A DNA stretch of 64,000 nucleotides from an uncultured bacterium (lineage in GTDB: Bacteria; Armatimonadota; HRBIN16): the NCBI GenBank assembly GCA_964579145.1, contig CAZOGB010000006.1:3003-67002 (forward strand). Direction: 5' to 3'. Every line of letters begins with the position of its first letter. Positions within the stretch are counted from its first letter, which is position 1. Below are positions 26,561 to 49,807 of the stretch, one piece after another. The notes under the pieces were generated by a model, which searched no databases, was not told where the DNA came from, and saw only the letters and a list, made by a program, of their open reading frames with translations. The position numbers were made by a program, and so were the translations under genes.

Positions 26561-26929
26561 ATGCCCATCTATGAATACCGGTGTAATGCCTGCCGAAGGC
26601 GGTTCAGTGTGCTGGTGGGTGTGATTGCGGAGGATGACCCCCTGCAATGTCCCCGCTGTGGGAGTACCGATGCCACCCGGTTGATTTCGCGCTTCGCCCG
26701 CCTGCGCAACGAGGACGACATCATCGACGACATGCTGGACCCCGACAGGATCGGTGACCCCGAGGACCCGAAGACCATGCGCCGCTGGGTGAAGGAGATG
26801 GGCAAGGAGCTGGGCGAGGACTTCGCCGACGAGTTTGACGAGCTGCTGGTGGAGGAAGAGAAGAAAGCTGCCACGGGTGAGGGCGAAGCGAGCGGAGAGG
26901 GCGACGACGCAGGCGATGACCTGGTTTAA
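26561..26929 (+). CDS. FmdB-family zinc-ribbon protein (putative regulatory protein)
   Basis: MPIYEYRCNACRRRFSVLVGVIAEDDPLQCPRCGS carries the CxxC...CxxC zinc ribbon typical of the FmdB family, followed by a highly acidic tail. GGGAGGTGA lies 9 nt upstream. Confidence 0.8.
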   Translation: MPIYEYRCNACRRRFSVLVGVIAEDDPLQCPRCGSTDATRLISRFARLRNEDDIIDDMLDPDRIGDPEDPKTMRRWVKEMGKELGEDFADEFDELLVEEEKKAATGEGEASGEGDDAGDDLV

Positions 26930-28845
26930 CCCCCTTCTGCCAGCACGCGCACATCCCCCACCCGGCGCGTCAGGCGGATGCTGTCAAAATACTCTAACAG
27001 GGGTACCACAAACTTGCGACTGGAGCCGGTGAGGTCGCGGAACTCTCCAACGCTCAGCGAGCCCTTTTCTCGGATCGCCCGGCGCACCAGCTCCGCCAGA
27101 TCCTCCAGCACCTCCCGGTGGAAGAACAGCTCTTCCTCCAATCGCACCAGTTCTCCCATCTCCACCAGCACCTGTATCATCGCCCTCACGGCGTCGGGCG
27201 GCGCGCCTACCTGTTGAGCGATGATGGAGACCGGTGGCGGGGTTGCCTTCCCCTCGCGAATCGCCTGCGCGACGCGCTCTGCCAGACGCTTTTGACGTTC
27301 GTTGAGGCGAATAGTAAAATCTGCCAGCCGCACGACCGCCCCCTGCAGGGCAATCGCGCCCTCCTCCTGCCAGCGCGTCAGCAACGCCTCAAACAGGCGC
27401 GGGGACAGCCCCTTCGCTACGGTGGAGCGCAGCTCCTCGCGGGGTATTCCTGCACGCAGGGGGTTCTGTTGATGGTAACGTTGAAGAGTCTGCTTTGTTC
27501 GCTCCAGCAGGTCCTGCAGTACAGTGCCGGCAAACCACATATCGCCCACACGCCGAGCACGCCCTTCCCGCTCCAGCTGCTGAAGCAAGGTAGCAAGCTG
27601 GTGGGAACCGGTCTCGGCACAACGGGCAAGCTCCCCTGCGTCCAGACCGGCTGGAGACTGCGCCAGTATCGCCAGCACCTTTTGCGCCGGGTCGCCCTTC
27701 AGCAGTGAGTGCAGGCGTTCTATCACCGCAGGGTCAAATCGCCGGTGGCGCGGGGCGTGAGGCTCCAGCACAACGCCTCCACCGATGGTGAACATGGGCG
27801 AGTAGGTGCGGATGACAAAGCGGTCACCGCGTGCCGCAACCAGCGGCTTCTCCAGCCTTACCTGAACCATCCCCTGTGCGCCCGCTTCCAGTCGCTCGCT
27901 CTCCAGCAGGGAGACCCGTCCAATCACCTCTGCCGTGCCCAGATACACCCGTATCCGCGCTCTATGCGCCAGCCCCTTCGCCACGTCGGGAAGCAGAGTG
28001 ACCTGCGCGTCAAAAGCCTGCGTCGGACGGAACAGCCCGGGCGGCGCACACACCATCCCGCGTTCGACCTGCGCTTTCTCAACGCCTGGCAGGTTAATGG
28101 CGACCCGACTGCCCGCTACCGCCTCTTCTACTCTGCGCCCGTGCACCTGTATTTGTCGCGCCCGGGATTGCAGACCCGGCGGCAGCATTTCCACCGCATC
28201 CCCCACGCGCACCCTGCCGCTGACCAGCGTACCGGTCACCACCGTGCCCGCCCCAGCCAGTGTAAACACCCGGTCAATCGGCAGGCGGAACGGGGCATTC
28301 ACCTCCCGCGGGGGCACACGCTCCACCGCCTGTTGAAGAGCAGTCCGCAAATCGTCCAGCCCCTGCCCCGTTACCGCAGAGACCGGAATAATGGGCGAAT
28401 CGCTCAGCGGAGTGTCCCGCAGGAACTGCCTCACGTCGTCGGTCACCAGTTGAAGCCACTCCGCGTCCACGAGGTCGCACTTGGTCAGCGCCACCACGCC
28501 CGCCTTCACGTCCAGCAGGCGCAGGATGTCCAGATGCTCGCGCGTCTGCGGCATGATGCCTTCGTCCGCCGCTATGACCAACAGCACCACGTCCACGCCG
28601 CCTGCCCCCGCCAGCATGTTTTTGAGGAACCGCTCGTGCCCGGGCACATCCACAATACCGACCACCTGTCCGCTGGGCAGGCTCAGCGACGCGAAGCCCA
28701 GGTCTATCGTCATGCCGCGCTCCTGCTCTTCCTTCAGGCGGTCAGGATTGATGCCGGTCAGGGCGGTTATTAGCGTGGACTTGCCGTGGTCCACATGCCC
28801 TGCCGTACCGATAATCACGTGCTTTTCAGAGACTGGCGTATTCAT
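26926..28845 (-). CDS. selB: Selenocysteine-specific translation elongation factor SelB
   Basis: The GTPase domain has the motifs [18 protein letters not shown] and TKCDL. Extended C-terminal winged-helix domains bring the length to about 640 aa, typical of SelB. ATG at 28845 begins [17 protein letters not shown]. Confidence 0.9.
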
Positions 28846-29017
28846 CCGTGCCCTGCTCACGCATGATGTTCTCGCTAACAGTATACCGCCTGCTGGGCAT
28901 CGTGTGCGAGATGGTGGTTTGTCTCCTGCTGAAACACTTTGGCAGGTGATTGACATCCAGCGTCGCATCATGTTATGCTTACAGCAGGCGTGGGCTACTG
29001 CAAGGAGGCTTTAAGAC

Positions 29018-30757
29018 TTGGAAAACGCAAAACCGCTGGGCTACTTCGCCTTTGTGTTACATTCGCATATCCCGTACGTGCTGGCGCATGGGCGCAGTCC
29101 GCACGGCATGGACTGGCTTTCGGAAAGCGCTGCCGAGACCTATATCCCCCTGCTGAACACCTGTCATCGTTTGATTAAGGATGGTATCTCGCCGCAGTTT
29201 ACCATCGGTATCACCCCGGTGCTGGCGGAACAGCTGGCGCATCTTGCCTTTGCGGCGGAGTTTGAGGCTTGGCTGAAGGACAAAATCGCTGCGGCGGAGG
29301 TGAACCGCACGGAGTTCCTGCAGGAGAAGCAGATAGGCATGGCGGCGCTGGCGGACTACTGGCACCAGTTCTTCAGCAGGACGTTGAGCGATTTCCGCGA
29401 TCGCTATCGTTCGGATATCATTGGGGCGTTTCGCGACCTGCAGGACGCCGGACATATTGAGATTCTGACCAGCGCTGCGACGCACGGCTACCTGCCCTTG
29501 CTGGGAACCGATGAGGCGGTGCAGGCGCAGGTGAAACAGGGTGTGCAGACCTATAAACGGCTGTTCGGCAGGGCGCCGCGCGGTTTCTGGCTTCCTGAAT
29601 GCGCCTATCGCCCCCGCTATCGCTGGAACTACCCTGTGGATTTCGAAGGCAAGCCCGCTGAGCCCTGGCTTCGCAAAGGAGTGGAGGAGATACTCGCTGA
29701 AAACGGCCTTGAGTACTTCTTTATCGATTCGCACCTGCTTCGCGGTGGCGAGGCAATCGGCGTGTACGCCGAACGGTTTAAACCCCTGCGCGAGCTGTGG
29801 GAGCAGTTCAGCGTGCAGTACCGCCCGGAAGAGGCGGAAAAATCGCCTTACTGTGTGTATCTGGTCAACTCCTCCGACGAGCCCAAGCCACCCATCGCCG
29901 TCTTCACGCGCGACCCGCGCACCGGCGTGCAGGTCTGGAGCGCAGATTCGGGCTACCCGGGCGACGAGTACTATCTGGAGTTCCACAAGAAGCTGCCGCC
30001 CGGTGGCTTGCGCTACTGGCGCATCTCCCGCCCGAAGGACGACCTGGGCAAGAAACAGCCTTACGAGCTGGCAAAGGCATTCGAGCGCATCCAGGAACAC
30101 GCCAAACACTTCGTAGACCTCGCACATCAGGTGCTCAGCGAGCACGTGCAGTCCACCGGACAAAGCGGCATCATCACCGCCATGTACGATACCGAACTGT
30201 ACGGGCACTGGTGGTTCGAGGGTCCCGAGTGGCTGTACTGGGTGCGTCGGGGCATGGAGGCGCATCCCGAAATCCATCCAATCACCTGCGGGAAGTATCT
30301 GCACGAGCATCCTCCGCAGACGGTGATTCAACTGCCCGAAGGGTCATGGGGTGAAGGCGGGTACCACTGGGTGTGGCTGAACGAGTGGACCGAATGGACC
30401 TGGAGGCGCATCTACCCCGCCGAGCGTGAAATGGTGCGCCTGGCACGCCAGTACGGCGACCACCCGGAGGTACAAACCATCCTGAAGCAGATTGCCCGCG
30501 AACTTCTGCTGCTGCAATCCTCCGACTGGCAGTTTCTCATCAGCACATGGTCGGCACGGGATTACGCGGAACTGCGCGCGCAGTGGCACGCCGACCGTTT
30601 CCAGATGCTGGTGGCACTTCTGGAACGAGTAGCCCGGGGCGAGACGCCCTCCCCCGAAGAGTGGGGCGCACTGGGCGAGGCGGAGGAGCGCGACAACATC
30701 TTCCCGGACGTCGAGCCGAAATGGTGGGCACAGCTGGAGTTTCCACCCGGCGAGTAG
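29018..30757 (+). CDS. Glycoside hydrolase family 57 protein (1,4-alpha-glucan branching enzyme type)
   Basis: GYFAFVLHSHIPYV...GHIEILTSAATHGYLPLL is characteristic of GH57 branching enzymes. TTG start at 29018 with GGAGG about 9 nt upstream. Confidence 0.8.
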   Translation: MENAKPLGYFAFVLHSHIPYVLAHGRSPHGMDWLSESAAETYIPLLNTCHRLIKDGISPQFTIGITPVLAEQLAHLAFAAEFEAWLKDKIAAAEVNRTEFLQEKQIGMAALADYWHQFFSRTLSDFRDRYRSDIIGAFRDLQDAGHIEILTSAATHGYLPLLGTDEAVQAQVKQGVQTYKRLFGRAPRGFWLPECAYRPRYRWNYPVDFEGKPAEPWLRKGVEEILAENGLEYFFIDSHLLRGGEAIGVYAERFKPLRELWEQFSVQYRPEEAEKSPYCVYLVNSSDEPKPPIAVFTRDPRTGVQVWSADSGYPGDEYYLEFHKKLPPGGLRYWRISRPKDDLGKKQPYELAKAFERIQEHAKHFVDLAHQVLSEHVQSTGQSGIITAMYDTELYGHWWFEGPEWLYWVRRGMEAHPEIHPITCGKYLHEHPPQTVIQLPEGSWGEGGYHWVWLNEWTEWTWRRIYPAEREMVRLARQYGDHPEVQTILKQIARELLLLQSSDWQFLISTWSARDYAELRAQWHADRFQMLVALLERVARGETPSPEEWGALGEAEERDNIFPDVEPKWWAQLEFPPGE

Positions 30758-30764
30758 GCAGGGT

Positions 30765-32207
30765 ATGAGCACGCGAGAAACCGCCAACAACCCCTCCCCG
30801 TTGCGTGGTTTGCCCGCCGTGTCGCGCCTCCTGCAGGACGAGCGGATACAACAGGCGGTAGCGGAACATGGGCGTGACCTGGTGGTGGATTGTGCACGCG
30901 AGGTGCTGGAAGAGATACGCCGGAGATTGAAGAGCGGAGAGACACTTCCCGTCAACCTATCTTCGGTAGTCGGGGCGGTACTGCGGGAGGTTGGACGCTG
31001 GAGCACGCTGTCCCTGCGGCGGGCGATTAACGCCACTGGAGTGGTCCTGCACACAGGGCTGGGACGGGCGGTGCTTGCCGAGTCGGCGAGGCGGGCGGTC
31101 GCAGAGGTGGCAATGGGGCATTCCATGCTGGAGATTGACCGCGACACCGGCGAGCGCGGCGACCGCATCGAACATGTGCGCGACCTGCTGTGTCGGCTGA
31201 CTGGCGCGGAAGATGCCACCGTGGTGAACAACAACGCGGGGGCGGTTCTCCTGGCGGTTACCGTTCTGGCGCAGGGCAGAGAGGTGATTATCTCACGGGG
31301 GCAGCTGGTGGAGATTGGCGGTGCGTTCCGAATGCCAGACATCATCGCCCAGAGCGGTGCGAAGCTGGTGGAGGTCGGCACGACCAACCGCACTCGTCTC
31401 TCCGATTTCGAGCGGGCGATAACTCCCGAAACCGCGCTTATCCTGCGCTGTCATCCCAGCAACTTCCGCATCGTGGGATTTACCGAAGAGGTGTCCGCTG
31501 TCGAACTGGCATCCTTAGCGCATCGGCACGGACTGCACCTGCTGGACGACGTGGGCAGTGGCTGTCTGGTCAACACCGAGCAGTTCGGGCTGGAGCATGA
31601 GCCGACCCTGCAGGAGAGCGTGCAGGCGGGCAGTGATGTGGTGACCTGCAGCGGCGACAAACTGCTGGGCGGTCCGCAGGCGGGCATCATCCTGGGGCGC
31701 AGGGATATCGTTCAGCGCATCCGCAGGCATCCCCTGCACCGCGCGCTTCGGGTGGATAAGCTGACCCTGAGTGCGCTGGAAGCCACACTGCGCCTGTACC
31801 TGAACATGGAGACGGCTCTGCGCGAGATTCCCGTCCTGCGTGCGCTGGCGATGTCGGAGGGCGAAATCAGAAAGCGAGCCCAGCAGATAAAAGGGAGCCT
31901 GCAGAGAGCACTCCCTGCCGGGGCTATCACAGTGTCCTTGCGCGAAGGCGTGTCCGAGGTGGGCGGCGGAAGCCTGCCCGGTCAGCAGTTACCAACCGTA
32001 CTGGTCTGTTTGGGGAGTTCGCAGGTGGACGCTTCGCAGATGGCGCGTGCCCTGCGCTGGCAGGAGCCTGCTGTATTTGCGCGAATCGAACGCAATGAGG
32101 TGGTTCTTGACCCACGCACCGTGCTGCCGGAAGAGACCGATATGCTGGTACAGGCGGTGGCGCGCGCGGTCACTCAGTGTCTGAGGGGAGGGGCAAGCGA
32201 TGCATGA
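30765..32207 (+). CDS. selA: L-seryl-tRNA(Sec) selenium transferase
   Basis: The SelA N-terminal region (LRGLPAVSRLLQDERIQ) and the PLP-binding core NATGVVLHTGLGRA...CSGDKLLGGPQAGII. Lengths of about 470 aa are typical. Confidence 0.9.
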   Translation: MSTRETANNPSPLRGLPAVSRLLQDERIQQAVAEHGRDLVVDCAREVLEEIRRRLKSGETLPVNLSSVVGAVLREVGRWSTLSLRRAINATGVVLHTGLGRAVLAESARRAVAEVAMGHSMLEIDRDTGERGDRIEHVRDLLCRLTGAEDATVVNNNAGAVLLAVTVLAQGREVIISRGQLVEIGGAFRMPDIIAQSGAKLVEVGTTNRTRLSDFERAITPETALILRCHPSNFRIVGFTEEVSAVELASLAHRHGLHLLDDVGSGCLVNTEQFGLEHEPTLQESVQAGSDVVTCSGDKLLGGPQAGIILGRRDIVQRIRRHPLHRALRVDKLTLSALEATLRLYLNMETALREIPVLRALAMSEGEIRKRAQQIKGSLQRALPAGAITVSLREGVSEVGGGSLPGQQLPTVLVCLGSSQVDASQMARALRWQEPAVFARIERNEVVLDPRTVLPEETDMLVQAVARAVTQCLRGGASDA

Positions 32208-42046: not shown

Positions 42047-43114
42047 TCACTCATCCCCAATTGCGCCGAAGTTGCGCACCAGAATACCGAAGTCGAACAG
42101 GGTGACCTCTTCATCCCCGTCCAGGTCGGCATTTGGGTTCCAACCGCTGTCACCGGGCATCGTGCCAAAGGCAGACACCAGCTGCCCGAAGTCAAACAGC
42201 GTCACCTCGTTATCGCCGTCGATGTCCCCGTTGGTCAGCGTGAAGTTCGCTATGGTATCGCCCGTGATGGAGACGTCCGTCAGCGTCTGTCTCAGCCAGT
42301 GAGAAGCCTTCGCGGACAGGTCGTAGGTGCCGCGCAGGAGAGTCTGGAACGAGTATCTGCCCTCCCCATCAAGGTTGACCACGTGCGTTTCCATGGCGTC
42401 GGTGCTTCCCGGATTGCGTATCTCCATAGTGACCGGTATGCCTGTTAGGTCGCCCTCGTAGTCCCTCAATTCCACTGTGCCGCTGATGGTGACGGTTGCT
42501 CTGCCTTCAATGGTGAAGGCAAGGTCCTGTTCGGTGAGCCAGCCTCCGCCCACTGGGTTGCCCCCAAAGCCCCAGCCGCCGCCCGGGTTGTGCAGGTAGA
42601 ACGGCTCGCCGAGCGTGGGGCTGGTGCGAAGCCAGAACCACTGTCCGCCGTCATTGCCCGTGCCGTCGTTGTTGAGGTCAAAGGGACGCTGAACCCATGC
42701 GCTCAGGTAATAGGTGCCGGGCGGCAGATAGAAGCCGTTCAGTTCAAACACCAGGTCCGCCCGCCTCCGCAGGGGCCACTCTCCCGGCTCCAGCACCACC
42801 TCCGTGCCCATCGCCACCACGTCTATCACATCTACATGCGGCGCAGGCGAGATGGACAGATACACCCCCAGGTTATAGGTGGGGTCGCCCTGCTCACTGC
42901 CGTAAACCGTTACATGGTCAATCCACCAGCCGGGTTCAGGCACGGTGAAATCATCAAACAGCCAGACCGAATAGATGCGGTTTGCGGTGTCGGTGAAATC
43001 CTGAGCGGGACTGCCCCGGCTGACGCCATCCCAGGGCTGGTCCCACAGCACATCGGCGCGAAGTACGGAGACACCAAATGCCAGCGCCAGCAACAGCGAT
43101 GCAAGCCACTTCAT
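42047..43114 (-). CDS. Secreted protein with C-terminal dockerin-type calcium-binding repeats
   Basis: Signal peptide MKWLASLLLALAFGVSVLRA. Two tandem dockerin-like segments: DIDGDNEVTLFDFGQLVSAF and DLDGDEEVTLFDFGILVRNF. Confidence 0.65.
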   Translation of the reverse strand: MKWLASLLLALAFGVSVLRADVLWDQPWDGVSRGSPAQDFTDTANRIYSVWLFDDFTVPEPGWWIDHVTVYGSEQGDPTYNLGVYLSISPAPHVDVIDVVAMGTEVVLEPGEWPLRRRADLVFELNGFYLPPGTYYLSAWVQRPFDLNNDGTGNDGGQWFWLRTSPTLGEPFYLHNPGGGWGFGGNPVGGGWLTEQDLAFTIEGRATVTISGTVELRDYEGDLTGIPVTMEIRNPGSTDAMETHVVNLDGEGRYSFQTLLRGTYDLSAKASHWLRQTLTDVSITGDTIANFTLTNGDIDGDNEVTLFDFGQLVSAFGTMPGDSGWNPNADLDGDEEVTLFDFGILVRNFGAIGDE

Positions 43115-43142: not shown

Positions 43143-43535
43143 TCAGGGTTTGATGGAATCGAAGTATCTCCTCACCGGCTGGCGGTATTCGGGAGGAACG
43201 GTTTCACGCTGGAGGGCGCTTTCCGCCGCCCGCCGGTACTGGATGTACACGTCGTAGCTGGGCGTTCCACTGCTCACCGCATCAGGAGCGCCTCGCGTGA
43301 CAAAGGCAGGTGTCTCGCTGGGCCCGCTGGCAACGCCGGGAACCTGCGTGAACTTGCCACCCTTGACGTTCAAACGCGCCGTATCTTTGTCCTGCTGGGC
43401 GCGGTATTCCAGCTTCTCCAGTTTGGGACCGGTGGCAGGCAGTCCTGGTCCACCGCCGAAGCGCTTCTCATACGAGTTCATCGCTACGGGCAGTCCACCC
43501 ATCTCGCTCTTCAGCGCGGCAAGCAACGCTGCCAT
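43143..43535 (-). CDS. 130-codon ORF in-frame with and immediately downstream of the 403-codon ORF (possible C-terminal continuation)
   Basis: ATG at 43535 has no Shine-Dalgarno. It is in the same frame as 43581..44792, separated only by one TGA plus 15 open codons. See findings. Confidence 0.4.
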   Translation of the reverse strand: MAALLAALKSEMGGLPVAMNSYEKRFGGGPGLPATGPKLEKLEYRAQQDKDTARLNVKGGKFTQVPGVASGPSETPAFVTRGAPDAVSSGTPSYDVYIQYRRAAESALQRETVPPEYRQPVRRYFDSIKP

Positions 43536-43580
43536 TTCTGCCCACTGGCGCGCATCCAGCGCGCACGCCCCTGCGGACAG

Positions 43581-44792
43581 TCAGGTACCTCCCGCCTTCT
43601 GAATCCATTTCACCGCCTGCTGGAGGTCACCGATTTTGAGGTTTTTCAACGCCTCCTGCAGCTCCTTAGCGGCGGCATCCAGCTGCGTGCCCTGCAGAGC
43701 CTGCGCCAGCTGGCGCATTAGCTCCTCCAGCTTTTTGCGCTCTTCGGGGGAGAGATTGTTCCACTGCTTGGCAATCTGGTTCAACAGTTCGCCCAGCTTC
43801 TGCATATCCTGCTGGGATAGCGCGAGAGCCATTTGCAGTGCTATCTCGCTGGCGAAGGGTGTGGACGATTGCAGTCGGTTTTGCTGGGCGTTTCGGACGG
43901 AGGTGGGGGTGTTCTGTCCACCTTTTGTGTTGATGGAGGCGGTTTTCAGGGTGGCGCCAAGCTCTCGCTCCAGCTTCGCTTGCTGGATTTGCTGTTGCAC
44001 TGCGCGAGCGCTCAGAAACTCGTTCGCGGCACGCTGTATCGGCTTGCCCGAGTTCGCCTGCGCCAGCCTGCGCTGTTGCTCCTCCGCCTCGCGCTGCAGA
44101 CGCGACATCTTCACCAGCGCTTCGCGCTTGCTCAGGCGGGCGCGCTTCATCTGCTTCGCCAGCGATTCCAGCTGGGCGGCAAGCCGACGCATCTTTTCCC
44201 TGTCCTGTCCCGTTGCCTGCTTGCGCCACTCTTTCGCCAGCTGCTCCGCGCGTTCGCCTGCCTGGCGCATCGCTTGCTTCTGCTGACGCACCTGCGGCGA
44301 CTGGAACCATGCAAGGTCTGGAGCGAACCACAGGAAAACGGCTAATGCGGTGACCGCCAGCGCACCCCAGAAGGCACGAGGCAGGGGAACCCTCGCCAGA
44401 TTATGCAGATTCAACGATTGGGCATAGCTCTCGGCATCCTGCATCTGCAGAAGCTCCATTTCGCCCTGCGCCTCGCGGCGGGACAGCCAGTGCACGGTGC
44501 TCAATCGCTCCTTCGTCTGCGCCTTCCGATCTAACCACAGGGCGACCTGCTCCTCGCTCAACCGGCGCGTTGCCCCGAACGCCAGTCCAGCCAGCGCGAG
44601 AGCAAGCGTGACGCCCACAGGGTAGGCGTAGTGAACGTCCCACTGCAGTGCCCATGCCAGCGCAAGCCACAACGCGCTTGCCACCGCACCCGCAAACCAT
44701 CCCCCGCATATTCCGCGCAGAATATAGCTTGCCCGGGCGCGCCTGATGGTGTATCGGATAGCCTTCTGCCACGTCGTGGATGGCTCGGTCAA
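43581..44792 (-). CDS. Membrane-anchored coiled-coil protein of unknown function
   Basis: TTG start at 44792 with GAGGGGG 8 nt upstream. Three N-terminal TM helices, then a long Q/E/K/R-rich predicted coiled coil. It ends at a TGA. Confidence 0.55.
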   Translation of the reverse strand: MTEPSTTWQKAIRYTIRRARASYILRGICGGWFAGAVASALWLALAWALQWDVHYAYPVGVTLALALAGLAFGATRRLSEEQVALWLDRKAQTKERLSTVHWLSRREAQGEMELLQMQDAESYAQSLNLHNLARVPLPRAFWGALAVTALAVFLWFAPDLAWFQSPQVRQQKQAMRQAGERAEQLAKEWRKQATGQDREKMRRLAAQLESLAKQMKRARLSKREALVKMSRLQREAEEQQRRLAQANSGKPIQRAANEFLSARAVQQQIQQAKLERELGATLKTASINTKGGQNTPTSVRNAQQNRLQSSTPFASEIALQMALALSQQDMQKLGELLNQIAKQWNNLSPEERKKLEELMRQLAQALQGTQLDAAAKELQEALKNLKIGDLQQAVKWIQKAGGT

Positions 44793-44864
44793 CCGTATCG
44801 CCCCCTCTGTACTCCTTTGCTTCAGTTTACACTCTATTAGCAGGACATTGCAAGCGGTCTGGTT

Positions 44865-44999
44865 CTATTCCAGCGAGGCGTAGCGCAGACGACGGGCAAC
44901 TCCTAACATCTGGCTCGCCGTCAGGCTCTCTTTGCCTGCATACGCCCGCTGGCGGTCGTTGCGGTCGAAAAGCTGGCGTAGTTGCTGACGCCTGTCCAT
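44865..44999 (-). CDS. Possible 44-aa basic protein, first gene of the operon
   Basis: Absent from the ORF track. ATG at 44999 is 6 nt after AGGGGGA. MDRRQQLRQLFDRNDRQRAYAGKESLTASQMLGVARRLRYASLE. It lies 72 nt upstream of the 403-codon ORF. Confidence 0.3.
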   Translation of the reverse strand: MDRRQQLRQLFDRNDRQRAYAGKESLTASQMLGVARRLRYASLE

Positions 45000-45180: not shown

Positions 45181-46260
45181 GTGGAATGCGAAACCTTCTC
45201 GATTCTGGCGAAGGTGTCCGACATCACGGTGGAGCGTCATATCCCCTTCAACGTGATGTTCGAGCTGACGCACCGCTGTAACACGCGCTGTAAGCACTGC
45301 TACCAGCACCATCCCAAACGCGCGGACGGCGAGCTGAGCACCGAAGAGTGGTGCCGGGTGATGGATGACCTGGCAGAAGCAGGCACGCTGTATTTGACGC
45401 TTACCGGCGGGGAGGTGCTGCTGCGCAAGGACTTTTTTGAGATTGCCCGCTACGCCCGCAAGAAACGCTTCGCGCTGAAGATATACACCAACGGCACGCT
45501 GATTACGCCCGCTGTTGCCCAGAAGATTGCCGACCTGCGCCCCTTCACGGTGGAAATCAGCGTGTACGGCTCCAACGCGGAAACGCACGACGCCATGACA
45601 CAGGTGAAGGGCAGTTTTGACCGGGTCATCCGCGCGGTGAGGTTGCTCGTTGGGCTGGGTCAGCGTGTGATCCTGAAGTGCCCGCTGGCAACCTCCAGCT
45701 TCGGCCAGTACGAGGACATCATGCAGATGGCACAGGATCTCGGCGCGGAATATCGCTTCGACCCGACCATCGCACCCATGAACGACGGCGACATGTGCCC
45801 TACGAACCTGCGCATCGGCGTGGAGGAACTGATGAAGCTGTACGACGACGAGCGCGTGTTTAAGAAAAAAGGTCTACCCTCCATGGGACCGAACGACAAA
45901 GTGAAGATGTGCGACGCCGGGCGCAACAGTCTGGCGATTAACCCGTGGGGCGAGGTTTATCCCTGCGTGCAGATGCTCATCCCCTGCGGCAACGTGCGCG
46001 AAAAGTCCATCCTGGAGATATGGTATGGCTCGCGCGAGCTGCGCCACCTGCGAAACATCACTCCTGACGACCTGGCGCAATGCCAGAGCTGTGACGTGAA
46101 GCAGTATTGCAGTCGCTGTCCCGGCCAGGCTCTACTGGAGGATGGCAGCTTGACCGGCTGTCAGAGCAGAGCGAGGGTCATTGCCCGTATCCGCAAACGC
46201 CTGGCGGAACAGCAGGCGTCCCAGCAGGGCGGCAGTAACCTCCTGCGCGTGGTGGCTTAG
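45181..46260 (+). CDS. Radical SAM protein with C-terminal SPASM domain (peptide/cofactor maturase type)
   Basis: CNTRCKHC is the CxxxCxxC radical SAM cluster motif. The C-terminal Cys-rich SPASM region is CDAGRNSLAINPWGEVYPCVQ...CQSCDVKQYCSRCPG. GTG start with AGGGGG about 10 nt upstream. Confidence 0.85.
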   Translation: MECETFSILAKVSDITVERHIPFNVMFELTHRCNTRCKHCYQHHPKRADGELSTEEWCRVMDDLAEAGTLYLTLTGGEVLLRKDFFEIARYARKKRFALKIYTNGTLITPAVAQKIADLRPFTVEISVYGSNAETHDAMTQVKGSFDRVIRAVRLLVGLGQRVILKCPLATSSFGQYEDIMQMAQDLGAEYRFDPTIAPMNDGDMCPTNLRIGVEELMKLYDDERVFKKKGLPSMGPNDKVKMCDAGRNSLAINPWGEVYPCVQMLIPCGNVREKSILEIWYGSRELRHLRNITPDDLAQCQSCDVKQYCSRCPGQALLEDGSLTGCQSRARVIARIRKRLAEQQASQQGGSNLLRVVA

Positions 46261-48683: not shown

Positions 48684-49807
48684 GATGGATGTTCCTCCTC
48701 GAATCGCCGCACCATCGCGGCAACGTAGTGAATTTGCTCCTCACGGAGGTCGGGATGCACGGGCAGGGAGAGCACCTCGTTCGCGGCGCGTTCCGCATGG
48801 GGGAAATCTCCCTGCTGATAGCCCAGATTTTGGTACGCCTCCTGCAGGTGCAGGGGAAGCGGATAATAGACAGCGGTAGCGATACCGTGTTCCTTGAGAT
48901 ATTGCTGCAACGCATCGCGCTGGTGGTAGCGGATGGTGAACTGGTGGTAGGTATGCAGGTTGCCCGGCGCGGTTTTGGGCAATATCGCCTGCGTGTCCTG
49001 CAGCAGATTCAGATAGAGGCGGGCGTTGTGGCGGCGACGTTCGTTCCACCCGTCCAGATAGCGCAGTTTCACGCGCAGAATCGCCGCCTGTATCTCGTCC
49101 AGGCGACTGCAGTAGCCGGGCACTTTGTAGAAGTAGGCTCCACCTTCTGCCCCATGTCCCCGCAACCGCTTGACGCTTCGGGCAATCTCTTCGTCATTCG
49201 TCAGCACGATGCCGCCGTCACCGAACGCGCCCAGGTTCTTGGTGGGGTAAAAGCTCATCGCCGTGGCGTGACCGACCGCCGCCACCGGAACACCGTTTTG
49301 CTGGGCGCCGATGGCTTGCGCTGAGTCGTTCACCAGATACACGTTGTGCGCTTGGGCGATGCGCCACAATGCCTCGCGGTCGGTCATCTGTCCAAACAGG
49401 TCCACCGGTAACAGCGCGCGGGTGCGCACGGTAATCGCTCGCTCAATCGCTGAGACATCGATATTATAGGTATCCGGGTCGATATCCACATACACCGGTC
49501 TGGCGCCCAGCCGAACGATGACCTCGGTGGTGGCGCCGAAGGTAAAGGGCGTGGTAATCACCTCGTCGCCCGGTCCGATGCCCAGCGCCGCCAGCGATAG
49601 CTCCAGCGCGTCGGTGCCGGACGCCACGCCGATGCCGAACCTCGCCCCGCAATAGGCAGCGACCTCTTCCTCCAGACGCTGAACATTCTCCCCCAGAATA
49701 AATCGCCCGCTTTCCAGCACGCGAGCAACCGCTGTGTCTATCTCCTGACGCAGTGCCTGATACTGCGCCTGAAGGTCCACCATCGGTACCTGTATTGTTT
49801 CGCCCAT
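48680..49807 (-). CDS. DegT/DnrJ/EryC1/StrS-family PLP-dependent sugar aminotransferase
   Basis: VDLQAQYQALRQEIDTAV...ILGENVQRLEEEVAAYCG and the conserved active-site Lys region. Confidence 0.85.
   Translation of the reverse strand: MGETIQVPMVDLQAQYQALRQEIDTAVARVLESGRFILGENVQRLEEEVAAYCGARFGIGVASGTDALELSLAALGIGPGDEVITTPFTFGATTEVIVRLGARPVYVDIDPDTYNIDVSAIERAITVRTRALLPVDLFGQMTDREALWRIAQAHNVYLVNDSAQAIGAQQNGVPVAAVGHATAMSFYPTKNLGAFGDGGIVLTNDEEIARSVKRLRGHGAEGGAYFYKVPGYCSRLDEIQAAILRVKLRYLDGWNERRRHNARLYLNLLQDTQAILPKTAPGNLHTYHQFTIRYHQRDALQQYLKEHGIATAVYYPLPLHLQEAYQNLGYQQGDFPHAERAANEVLSLPVHPDLREEQIHYVAAMVRRFEEEHPS

Follow-up and report, generated by a model that had tools for sequence, protein, structure and literature searches.

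The candidate gene and its in-frame UGA

We analysed a stretch of 64,000 nucleotides (nt) from an uncultured bacterium of the phylum Armatimonadota (GenBank assembly GCA_964579145.1, contig CAZOGB010000006.1, positions 3,003 to 67,002), which is called the window below and whose own numbering is used for all positions. The subject is a candidate selenoprotein gene on its reverse strand, in which one in-frame UGA may be read as selenocysteine (Sec). The complete candidate gene occupies 43143..44792 (-), from a TTG start at 44792, through the in-frame UGA, to a final TGA stop at 43145..43143. A Shine-Dalgarno-like GAGGGGG (44801..44807, -) lies 8 nt 5' of the TTG, and the same stretch is identical in the related locus L001.

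The upstream open reading frame (ORF; 44792..43581, -) has 403 codons and is then closed by the TGA at 43583..43581. Between this TGA and an ATG at 43535 there are 15 open codons (LSAGACALDARQWAE); one frame is kept throughout, and the 130-codon ORF that follows ends at 43143. The ATG at 43535 has no Shine-Dalgarno sequence. The original prediction had described this arrangement, together with a read-through product of about 550 residues and a Cys six residues past the putative Sec, and all of these elements were confirmed from the sequence. Read-through translation of 43143..44792 (-) gives 549 amino acids (aa). The UGA (43581..43583, -) would encode Sec as residue 404, and the TGC at 43563..43565 (-) encodes Cys410, a candidate resolving partner of Sec404 (U-x5-C) that is kept in all close Sec and Cys forms. 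In the public records examined, the gene is always annotated as two pieces, a "hypothetical protein" of some 400 aa and an orphan ORF of some 140 aa. TGA is the stop codon of 8 of the 19 confirmed window genes. The genetic code is therefore standard, and reassignment of UGA was rejected on this ground.

Directly after the UGA lies a stem-loop, a candidate selenocysteine insertion sequence (SECIS). Its core (43548..43564, -) consists of six G-C pairs closing the apical loop UGGAU, which begins 22 nt after the UGA; the arms and loop are GCGCGC (43564..43559), UGGAU (43558..43554) and GCGCGC (43553..43548). The extended stem-loop (43538..43580, -) begins right after the UGA, covers 43 nt and folds with about -27 kcal/mol, its lower stem being less conserved than the core.

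The window also encodes SelA and SelB, as had been predicted, and both were identified by strong Pfam matches. The selA gene (selenocysteine synthase; 30765..32207, +) was matched by PF03841 (E=4.9e-145) and PF12390, and the selB gene (Sec-specific elongation factor; 26926..28971, -) by GTP_EFTU, SelB-wing_2, SelB-wing_3 and the SelB beta-barrel domain. They lie 10.9 kb (selA) and 14.2 kb (selB) from the candidate gene. The two are divergently oriented, with a GH57 branching-enzyme gene (29018..30757) between them. Genes for known selenoproteins, such as fdhA, were not seen in the 64 kb.

Close relatives carry TGA or a Cys codon at the same column

A protein search with the read-through product recovered 33 relatives, all apparently from Armatimonadota. 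About 24 of them are about 403 aa long and end at the same point, and seven are uninterrupted proteins of 499-547 aa that span both parts. All seven long relatives have Cys in the UGA column, and the Cys six residues on is also common to them. Orthologs of the gene match residues 1-549 in one frame.

At the DNA level, 23 related loci (L numbers below) from species-level genomes and metagenomes were compared. TGA was found at exactly this codon in 13 distinct Armatimonadota genes, whose N-terminal parts are 66-92% identical, and also in seven distant genes described below. All 13 genes have an open frame and a conserved protein sequence on either side of the TGA. The C-terminal 145 residues are 80-94% identical among these TGA forms and are thus better conserved than the N-terminal part. 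The shared TGA and the protein conservation flanking it therefore exclude a fresh pseudogene and an untranslated spacer. An ortholog alignment at this column had been proposed in the original prediction; in our alignment every uninterrupted close ortholog has Cys there, encoded by TGT or TGC.

Conserved coding begins immediately past the TGA, with a codon that in most cases is not a start codon. In the TGA forms, the codons just 3' of the TGA differ only synonymously (TCC, TCG or TCT for Ser; GGA, GGC, GGG or GGT for Gly). This result indicates that the "spacer" codons are translated in the TGA forms themselves. The scenario that had been set against a selenoprotein, namely orthologs ending at this point and followed by an independently started gene, is not what the alignments show.

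Selection at the RNA level was assessed from synonymous differences. At codons +5 to +13 after the UGA, the 13 TGA forms show 0/612 pairwise synonymous differences, versus 0.43 in the remaining gene, and this is the most constrained stretch of nine codons in the whole gene in these forms. The six full-length Cys forms encode the same peptide at these codons, with a synonymous difference of 0.43 versus 0.31 elsewhere. The core hairpin sequence is identical across the TGA forms, with a folding energy of -12.4 kcal/mol in most of them and -13.3 kcal/mol in L009. The core hairpin of the Cys forms gives -3 to -10 kcal/mol, and L026 and L027, both with TGT, lack the hairpin. Conservation of the hairpin, which the original prediction had named as a check, thus follows the UGA: it is kept in TGA forms and decayed in Cys forms. 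As judged from these comparisons, the hairpin is an RNA element under selection specifically in TGA forms.

Two kinds of Cys form stood out. L025 (224..1786; protein P0001) has TGC at the Sec position and a fully intact hairpin, identical to the L009 type. Because the Cys codon coexists with an intact hairpin, L025 has apparently replaced Sec by Cys very recently and retains a "fossil" SECIS. In one clade of Cys forms (L015-L021 and L023; proteins P0003-P0006) the sequence reads C-x4-C-x2-C-x5-C, compared with W-x4-G-x2-U-x5-C in the Sec forms. The two extra Cys coincide with the absence of Sec, and this suggests a chemistry of another kind in this clade, either a metal site or two disulfides.

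The hairpin has the properties of a bacterial SECIS element

The consensus of bacterial SECIS (bSECIS) elements has an apical loop of 3-9 nt, a stem of 4-16 base pairs (bp) and a G in the first two loop positions, with 16-37 nt from UGA to loop and a minimum free energy of -7.5 kcal/mol or below (PMC13188914). The hairpin of the window falls within every one of these limits, with the loop UGGAU, a stem of 6-8 bp, a spacing of 22 nt (19 nt in the 8-bp register) and an energy of about -12 kcal/mol. Both the GCGCGC-UGGAU-GCGCGC hairpin and its SECIS-range spacing had been predicted, and both hold.

We coded the bSECIS constraints of PMC13188914 as a pass/fail test, with other in-frame positions and genuine TGA stops as controls. 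The region 3' of the UGA, for which a SECIS check had been suggested, passed this test. So did all of the tested UGA sites (11/11), compared with a background of 3-12% at the remaining in-frame positions of these genes, and the hairpin of L038, read directly from its fold, also fits the constraints. None of the eight genuine TGA stops of Pfam-confirmed window genes passed (0/8). The GC-rich window holds 17 TGA codons with at least 120 open codons on either side, and among these junctions the test was passed only by the Sec-UGA site and by one shadow-frame site.

This second site is the TGA at 48743..48741 (-), whose hairpin GUUGCCGC-GAUGGU-GCGGCGAU has an energy of -12.2 kcal/mol. It lies 20 codons 5' of a nucleotidyl-transferase start, in a frame other than that of the DegT-type aminotransferase gene whose 3' end it overlaps. 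Its bSECIS-like hairpin is probably due to chance.

An Rfam scan at gathering and permissive thresholds returned no SECIS or other family. This is expected, because bacterial SECIS elements are gene-specific.

Distant relatives repeat the same organization

A profile of the N-terminal 403 columns was searched against 1.84 billion cluster representatives and matched 1,093 proteins at E <= 1e-3. Among the 147 distant representatives listed, 44 end in a shared motif (…GGT in 25; also GGG, AGT, AST and CFG) without the C-terminal tail, and 70 are uninterrupted and carry the tail …IPxxYRxQVKDYFDSIKP. None has the end motif and the tail together. In the window gene the conserved family tail (…YDVYIQYRRAAESALQRETVPPEYRQPVRRYFDSIKP) lies at 43146..43259 (-). 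It closes the read-through frame in every TGA form and is the C-terminus of the 70 uninterrupted representatives.

The DNA of seven distant short forms (L030/L031, L032-L036 and L038) was inspected. Each of them ends in TGA, and each continues past it for 121-227 more open codons that end in the family tail. Their hairpins lie 16-23 nt past the UGA, with G-bearing loops (UGGAU, GGC, CGGG, GGUCU, GUC and GGU) and differing stem sequences. The product of the background pass rates over seven sequence-distinct hairpin types gives a joint chance of about 2e-8. The hairpins of L030 and L038 are in register with that of the window, with the same loop and four stem pairs changed on both sides. A covariation check gave 87.5% pairing, best at zero slide. 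Because four sequences were compared, these compensatory stem changes lend modest support to the predicted hairpin.

The U column in the distant forms was placed by local BLAST around the site, as the end of the N-terminal profile was out of register owing to variable helical repeats. A Cys lies near Sec in nearly all forms, at a distance of 2-6 residues in most of the distant ones, as UxxC in L030 and L038, as CxxU in L034 and as C-x4-6-U in L032, L033, L035 and L036; the window protein has U-x5-C. The original prediction had called the architecture not classical for a redox selenoprotein. Some relatives, however, do have a classical UxxC or CxxU at this place. For the L030, L034 and L035 subfamilies, the nearest long relatives have Cys at the column or within one residue of it. 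For the L032, L033 and L036 subfamilies, no Cys aligned to the UGA was found within the available sample. In L032 (4001..5938), Sec sits in a short insertion (…HTNECLQPGGT-U…).

By these features, about 30% of the superfamily cluster representatives look Sec-type; others have Cys, and some have neither. The superfamily is unnamed and occurs in Armatimonadota and Planctomycetota at least.

The predicted protein matches no catalogued selenoprotein family

The membrane-anchor region (44304..44711, -) was recognized from hydropathy and charge counts. Hydrophobic residues 28-49, 56-74 and 139-163 are arranged around a charged loop of about 65 aa, so the three transmembrane helices of the original prediction correspond to three hydrophobic segments. 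An invariant WFAPD motif is located at the third of them. The N-terminus holds six K/R residues, and by the positive-inside rule the C-terminal ~390 residues (two thirds of the protein) would lie outside the cytoplasm, facing the periplasm. Sec404 and Cys410 are the only redox-capable residues outside the membrane. An AlphaFold2 model of a Cys form, of modest confidence (predicted local distance difference test score 61.5), is all-helical, is disordered at 432-510 and has two C-terminal helices.

Pfam and NCBIfam searches gave nothing significant for either half, for residues 320-549 with Cys at the Sec site or for three Cys-form homologs, and a Pfam/NCBIfam-type scan of ten distant long forms gave no significant match. 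Foldseek against the PDB and a profile search of PDB sequences returned only generic helical bundles and designed coiled coils, and these matches are thus uninformative on function. DUF4175 (PF13779) also comprises long bacterial membrane-anchored helical proteins, and it gave a faint match to the helical region (10.5 bits, E=0.15, 45 residues). This score is below the gathering threshold of 27.3 bits and the 10 distant long forms were unmatched, so membership in DUF4175 was rejected on present evidence.

The 119 families and subfamilies of prokaryotic selenoproteins tabulated in PMC13188914 are each tied to an InterPro-based model, mostly from Pfam or NCBIfam/TIGRFAM and in a few cases from CDD or PANTHER. 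None of them was matched by a significant Pfam/NCBIfam score. The family is also undescribed in the deep-Sep paper, in the BSepDB paper and in the one paper found to name both selenoproteins and Armatimonadetes.

The candidate gene was compared with known systems. Like E. coli fdhF-type genes, it has an in-frame UGA followed by an intragenic 3' stem-loop with a small G-bearing loop 16-37 nt off (PMC13188914), SelA and SelB are present in the genome, and Sec and Cys interchange among homologs. In contrast, the window protein is unrelated to FdhA or any catalogued family, and its SECIS sequence is family-specific. The predicted envelope selenoproteins of the DsbA-like, DsbG-like and thiol:disulfide interchange types (UxxC; PMC13188914) share with it a Sec with a nearby Cys and a predicted extracytoplasmic position, and distant members of the window family have the same UxxC (L030 and L038) or CxxU (L034). 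The window protein differs from them in lacking a thioredoxin fold, in being of an all-helical, membrane-anchored coiled-coil type and in its U-x5-C spacing. The LULAXC motif of TsoA (NF045695; PMC13188914) is superficially similar to T-U-L-S-A-G-A-C of the window protein. However, an NCBIfam scan containing NF045695 gave no match for the halves, for residues 320-549 with Cys at the Sec site or for the Cys forms, and the spacing is U-x3-C in TsoA versus U-x5-C here.

Weighing the selenoprotein reading

Several observations weigh against reading the UGA as Sec in a redox protein. The hairpin of the window is of ordinary stability, with z = -0.46 against shuffled sequences and 57 of 200 shuffles folding equally well, so its stability is no argument on its own. 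With this ordinary energy and 17 comparable TGA junctions in the window, the bare split-ORF pattern is not beyond chance. The loop UGGAU lacks the closing N1-N2 pair that is found in most, though not all, bSECIS loops. The genes for tRNA-Sec (selC) and selD were not found within the 64-kb window. At the protein level, a thioredoxin-like fold or recognisable redox domain is absent, and in the AlphaFold2 model the motif is part of a helix, a geometry that would keep residues i and i+6 apart. In the superfamily, 30 of the 70 distant long forms lack a Cys in this region, and in the nearest uninterrupted relatives of L032 the insertion is missing and Gly stands at the aligned column. The site is therefore frequent but neither universal nor essential in the superfamily.

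The locus could instead hold two genes, with a 403-aa protein that stops at the UGA, a C-terminal protein that is re-initiated or coupled, and fusions as the origin of the uninterrupted forms. Gene callers annotate just such a split in all public records examined, and an ATG directly follows the TGA in L006, L009 and L030; in the window the ATG lies 16 codons downstream. However, the first codon after the TGA in most lineages is CTG, ACG, GAG, CAA, ATT, AAG or AAA, none usable as a start. The 15 codons before the window ATG are conserved as protein, with purely synonymous variation, and that ATG is the one without a Shine-Dalgarno sequence. Fusion would also leave unexplained why Cys is constant at the junction and why selection on a SECIS-type hairpin is restricted to TGA forms. 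We consider the two-gene arrangement very unlikely.

Another explanation is that the UGA is bypassed without Sec, through a near-cognate tRNA (Trp or Cys) or other recoding, or that the hairpin causes a pause for membrane insertion. Stable structures 3' of stop codons can stimulate read-through generally, and the stable structure downstream of this UGA could do so as well. Several findings argue for Sec rather than for such a bypass. In eight lineages the hairpins share the SECIS-defining small, G-first apical loop, placed 16-23 nt from the UGA; homologs have specifically Cys as the aligned residue; SelA and SelB are encoded in the genome; and the partner Cys gives UxxC or CxxU motifs in relatives. 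A bypass without Sec is, on these grounds, highly improbable.

A recent nonsense mutation (a fresh pseudogene) or an error in sequencing this genome is almost certainly not the explanation. A lone in-frame stop in an otherwise intact gene does resemble a young pseudogene, and 17 similar TGA junctions arise by chance in the window. The same TGA, however, recurs in 13 distinct Armatimonadota sequences, which come from independent assemblies, and in 7 distant relatives; conservation is higher downstream of it than upstream; and the same GGT-type motif is the terminus of 44 of the 147 distant representatives listed. The original prediction had left open whether this was a selenoprotein of a new kind or a fresh nonsense lesion. 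The lesion is rejected by a TGA shared among at least 20 divergent genes, and the selenoprotein is favoured by the Cys orthologs, the conserved TGA and the TGA-specific hairpin.

Gene neighbourhood

Directly downstream of the candidate gene lies a gene (42047..43114, -) for a 355-aa secreted protein with carboxypeptidase-regulatory-like and dockerin domains (Pfam). This dockerin-type protein contains no Cys. Its gene is directly downstream in nearly all Armatimonadota loci, of Sec and Cys forms alike, and because this adjacency is kept it is probably an operon partner.

Upstream, a 44-aa ORF (44865..44999, -) had been placed at the head of the same operon. The ORF exists, but it is what an in-frame deletion of about 915 bp has left of a 349-aa gene, which the closest relative has intact (L001 4879..5928); the deletion joins the first ~16 codons of that gene to its last ~28. 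The 349-aa gene gave weak GH9/GH88-like matches, and its C-terminal peptide is conserved in L005, L010, L012 and L019. As a deletion remnant the ORF is no dedicated leader. Its candidacy as an operon leader, or as a precursor like those of ribosomally synthesized and post-translationally modified peptides (RiPP-like) for the radical SAM/SPASM gene, was rejected for this reason. The radical SAM/SPASM-domain gene itself (45181..46260, +) is divergent and upstream, and its position is conserved only for the closest relative (L001/L008).

The distant Sec loci have other neighbours. In L030, L033, L034, L035, L038 and the P0050 contig, ABC-2 genes (permease, ATPase, permease) are followed by the gene of the family and by a MoxR AAA+ ATPase gene. 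After MoxR come DUF58 and BatA/von Willebrand factor A (VWA) genes in L034, and a rhomboid gene in L038. Bat/MoxR-type adjacency was observed in L030, L031, L034, L035, L038 and the P0050 contig, and none was observed in the window or the other Armatimonadota loci. Bat-type clusters have been proposed to act on the periplasmic redox state, their function being unproven (PMC3557215). The link to such clusters, known as batA-E in Bacteroides fragilis, is that in the distant relatives the gene has an ABC-2 transporter before it and MoxR, DUF58 and BatA/VWA genes directly after it. The window protein differs in being none of BatA-E and in lacking VWA and tetratricopeptide repeat (TPR) domains, and its lineage has no MoxR/Bat neighbours.

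Discussion

The in-frame UGA is conserved, Sec and Cys correspond at its column, a SECIS-type element is selected only in the UGA forms, and SelA and SelB are present. From these comparisons we infer that Sec is actually inserted at UGA 404. The TGA at 43583..43581 is very probably a selenocysteine codon within one gene for a 549-residue membrane selenoprotein, and the hairpin would be its bacterial SECIS. We rate this as a new selenoprotein family, decoded by the canonical bacterial mechanism, because it is absent from the 119 tabulated families, gave no match to their models and is undescribed in the literature searched.

By this mechanism, SelA would make Sec-tRNA(Sec), and SelB with GTP and Sec-tRNA(Sec) would bind the hairpin. 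SelB would then deliver the tRNA to the ribosome paused at the UGA, and translation would run on for 145 more codons. The product would have an N-terminal three-helix membrane anchor, a long helical coiled-coil, a Gly-flanked Sec404-x5-Cys410, a low-complexity linker and the conserved C-terminal tail. Anchored in the inner membrane, the 549-residue protein would carry its Sec/Cys pair in a Gly-flanked hinge, where, as part of an envelope complex, Sec404 and Cys410 might act as a redox-active selenylsulfide or bind a metal. This biochemical role is offered tentatively, as one possibility short of an even chance.

A wider proposal is more speculative still. The gene may be the first recognised member of a widespread, undescribed selenoprotein superfamily of at least 1,000 sequence clusters, about 30% of them with a GGT-U site at which annotation pipelines divide the gene. 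Many lineages place it between an ABC-2 exporter and MoxR-DUF58-BatA genes, so it could possibly supply a missing redox component of the Bat-type "aerotolerance" envelope systems, and the UGA could perhaps act as a selenium-dependent switch between a 403-residue and a full-length form.

The finding adds a selenoprotein family of unusual architecture, which combines a membrane anchor with a coiled coil and lacks a thioredoxin fold, in Armatimonadota, a phylum undiscussed in the selenoprotein literature as far as searched. It also exposes a systematic annotation error, in which a Sec gene is split in two in the public records examined. The family provides a natural evolutionary series, from Sec through a recent Sec-to-Cys change with a fossil SECIS and older Cys forms with a decayed SECIS to a four-Cys variant and forms without Cys. 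The family is large, and in other lineages it is linked to ABC-2 and MoxR-DUF58-BatA clusters. What these clusters do biochemically has been unclear since 1999; the candidate Sec/Cys redox site would give a testable handle on these envelope systems.

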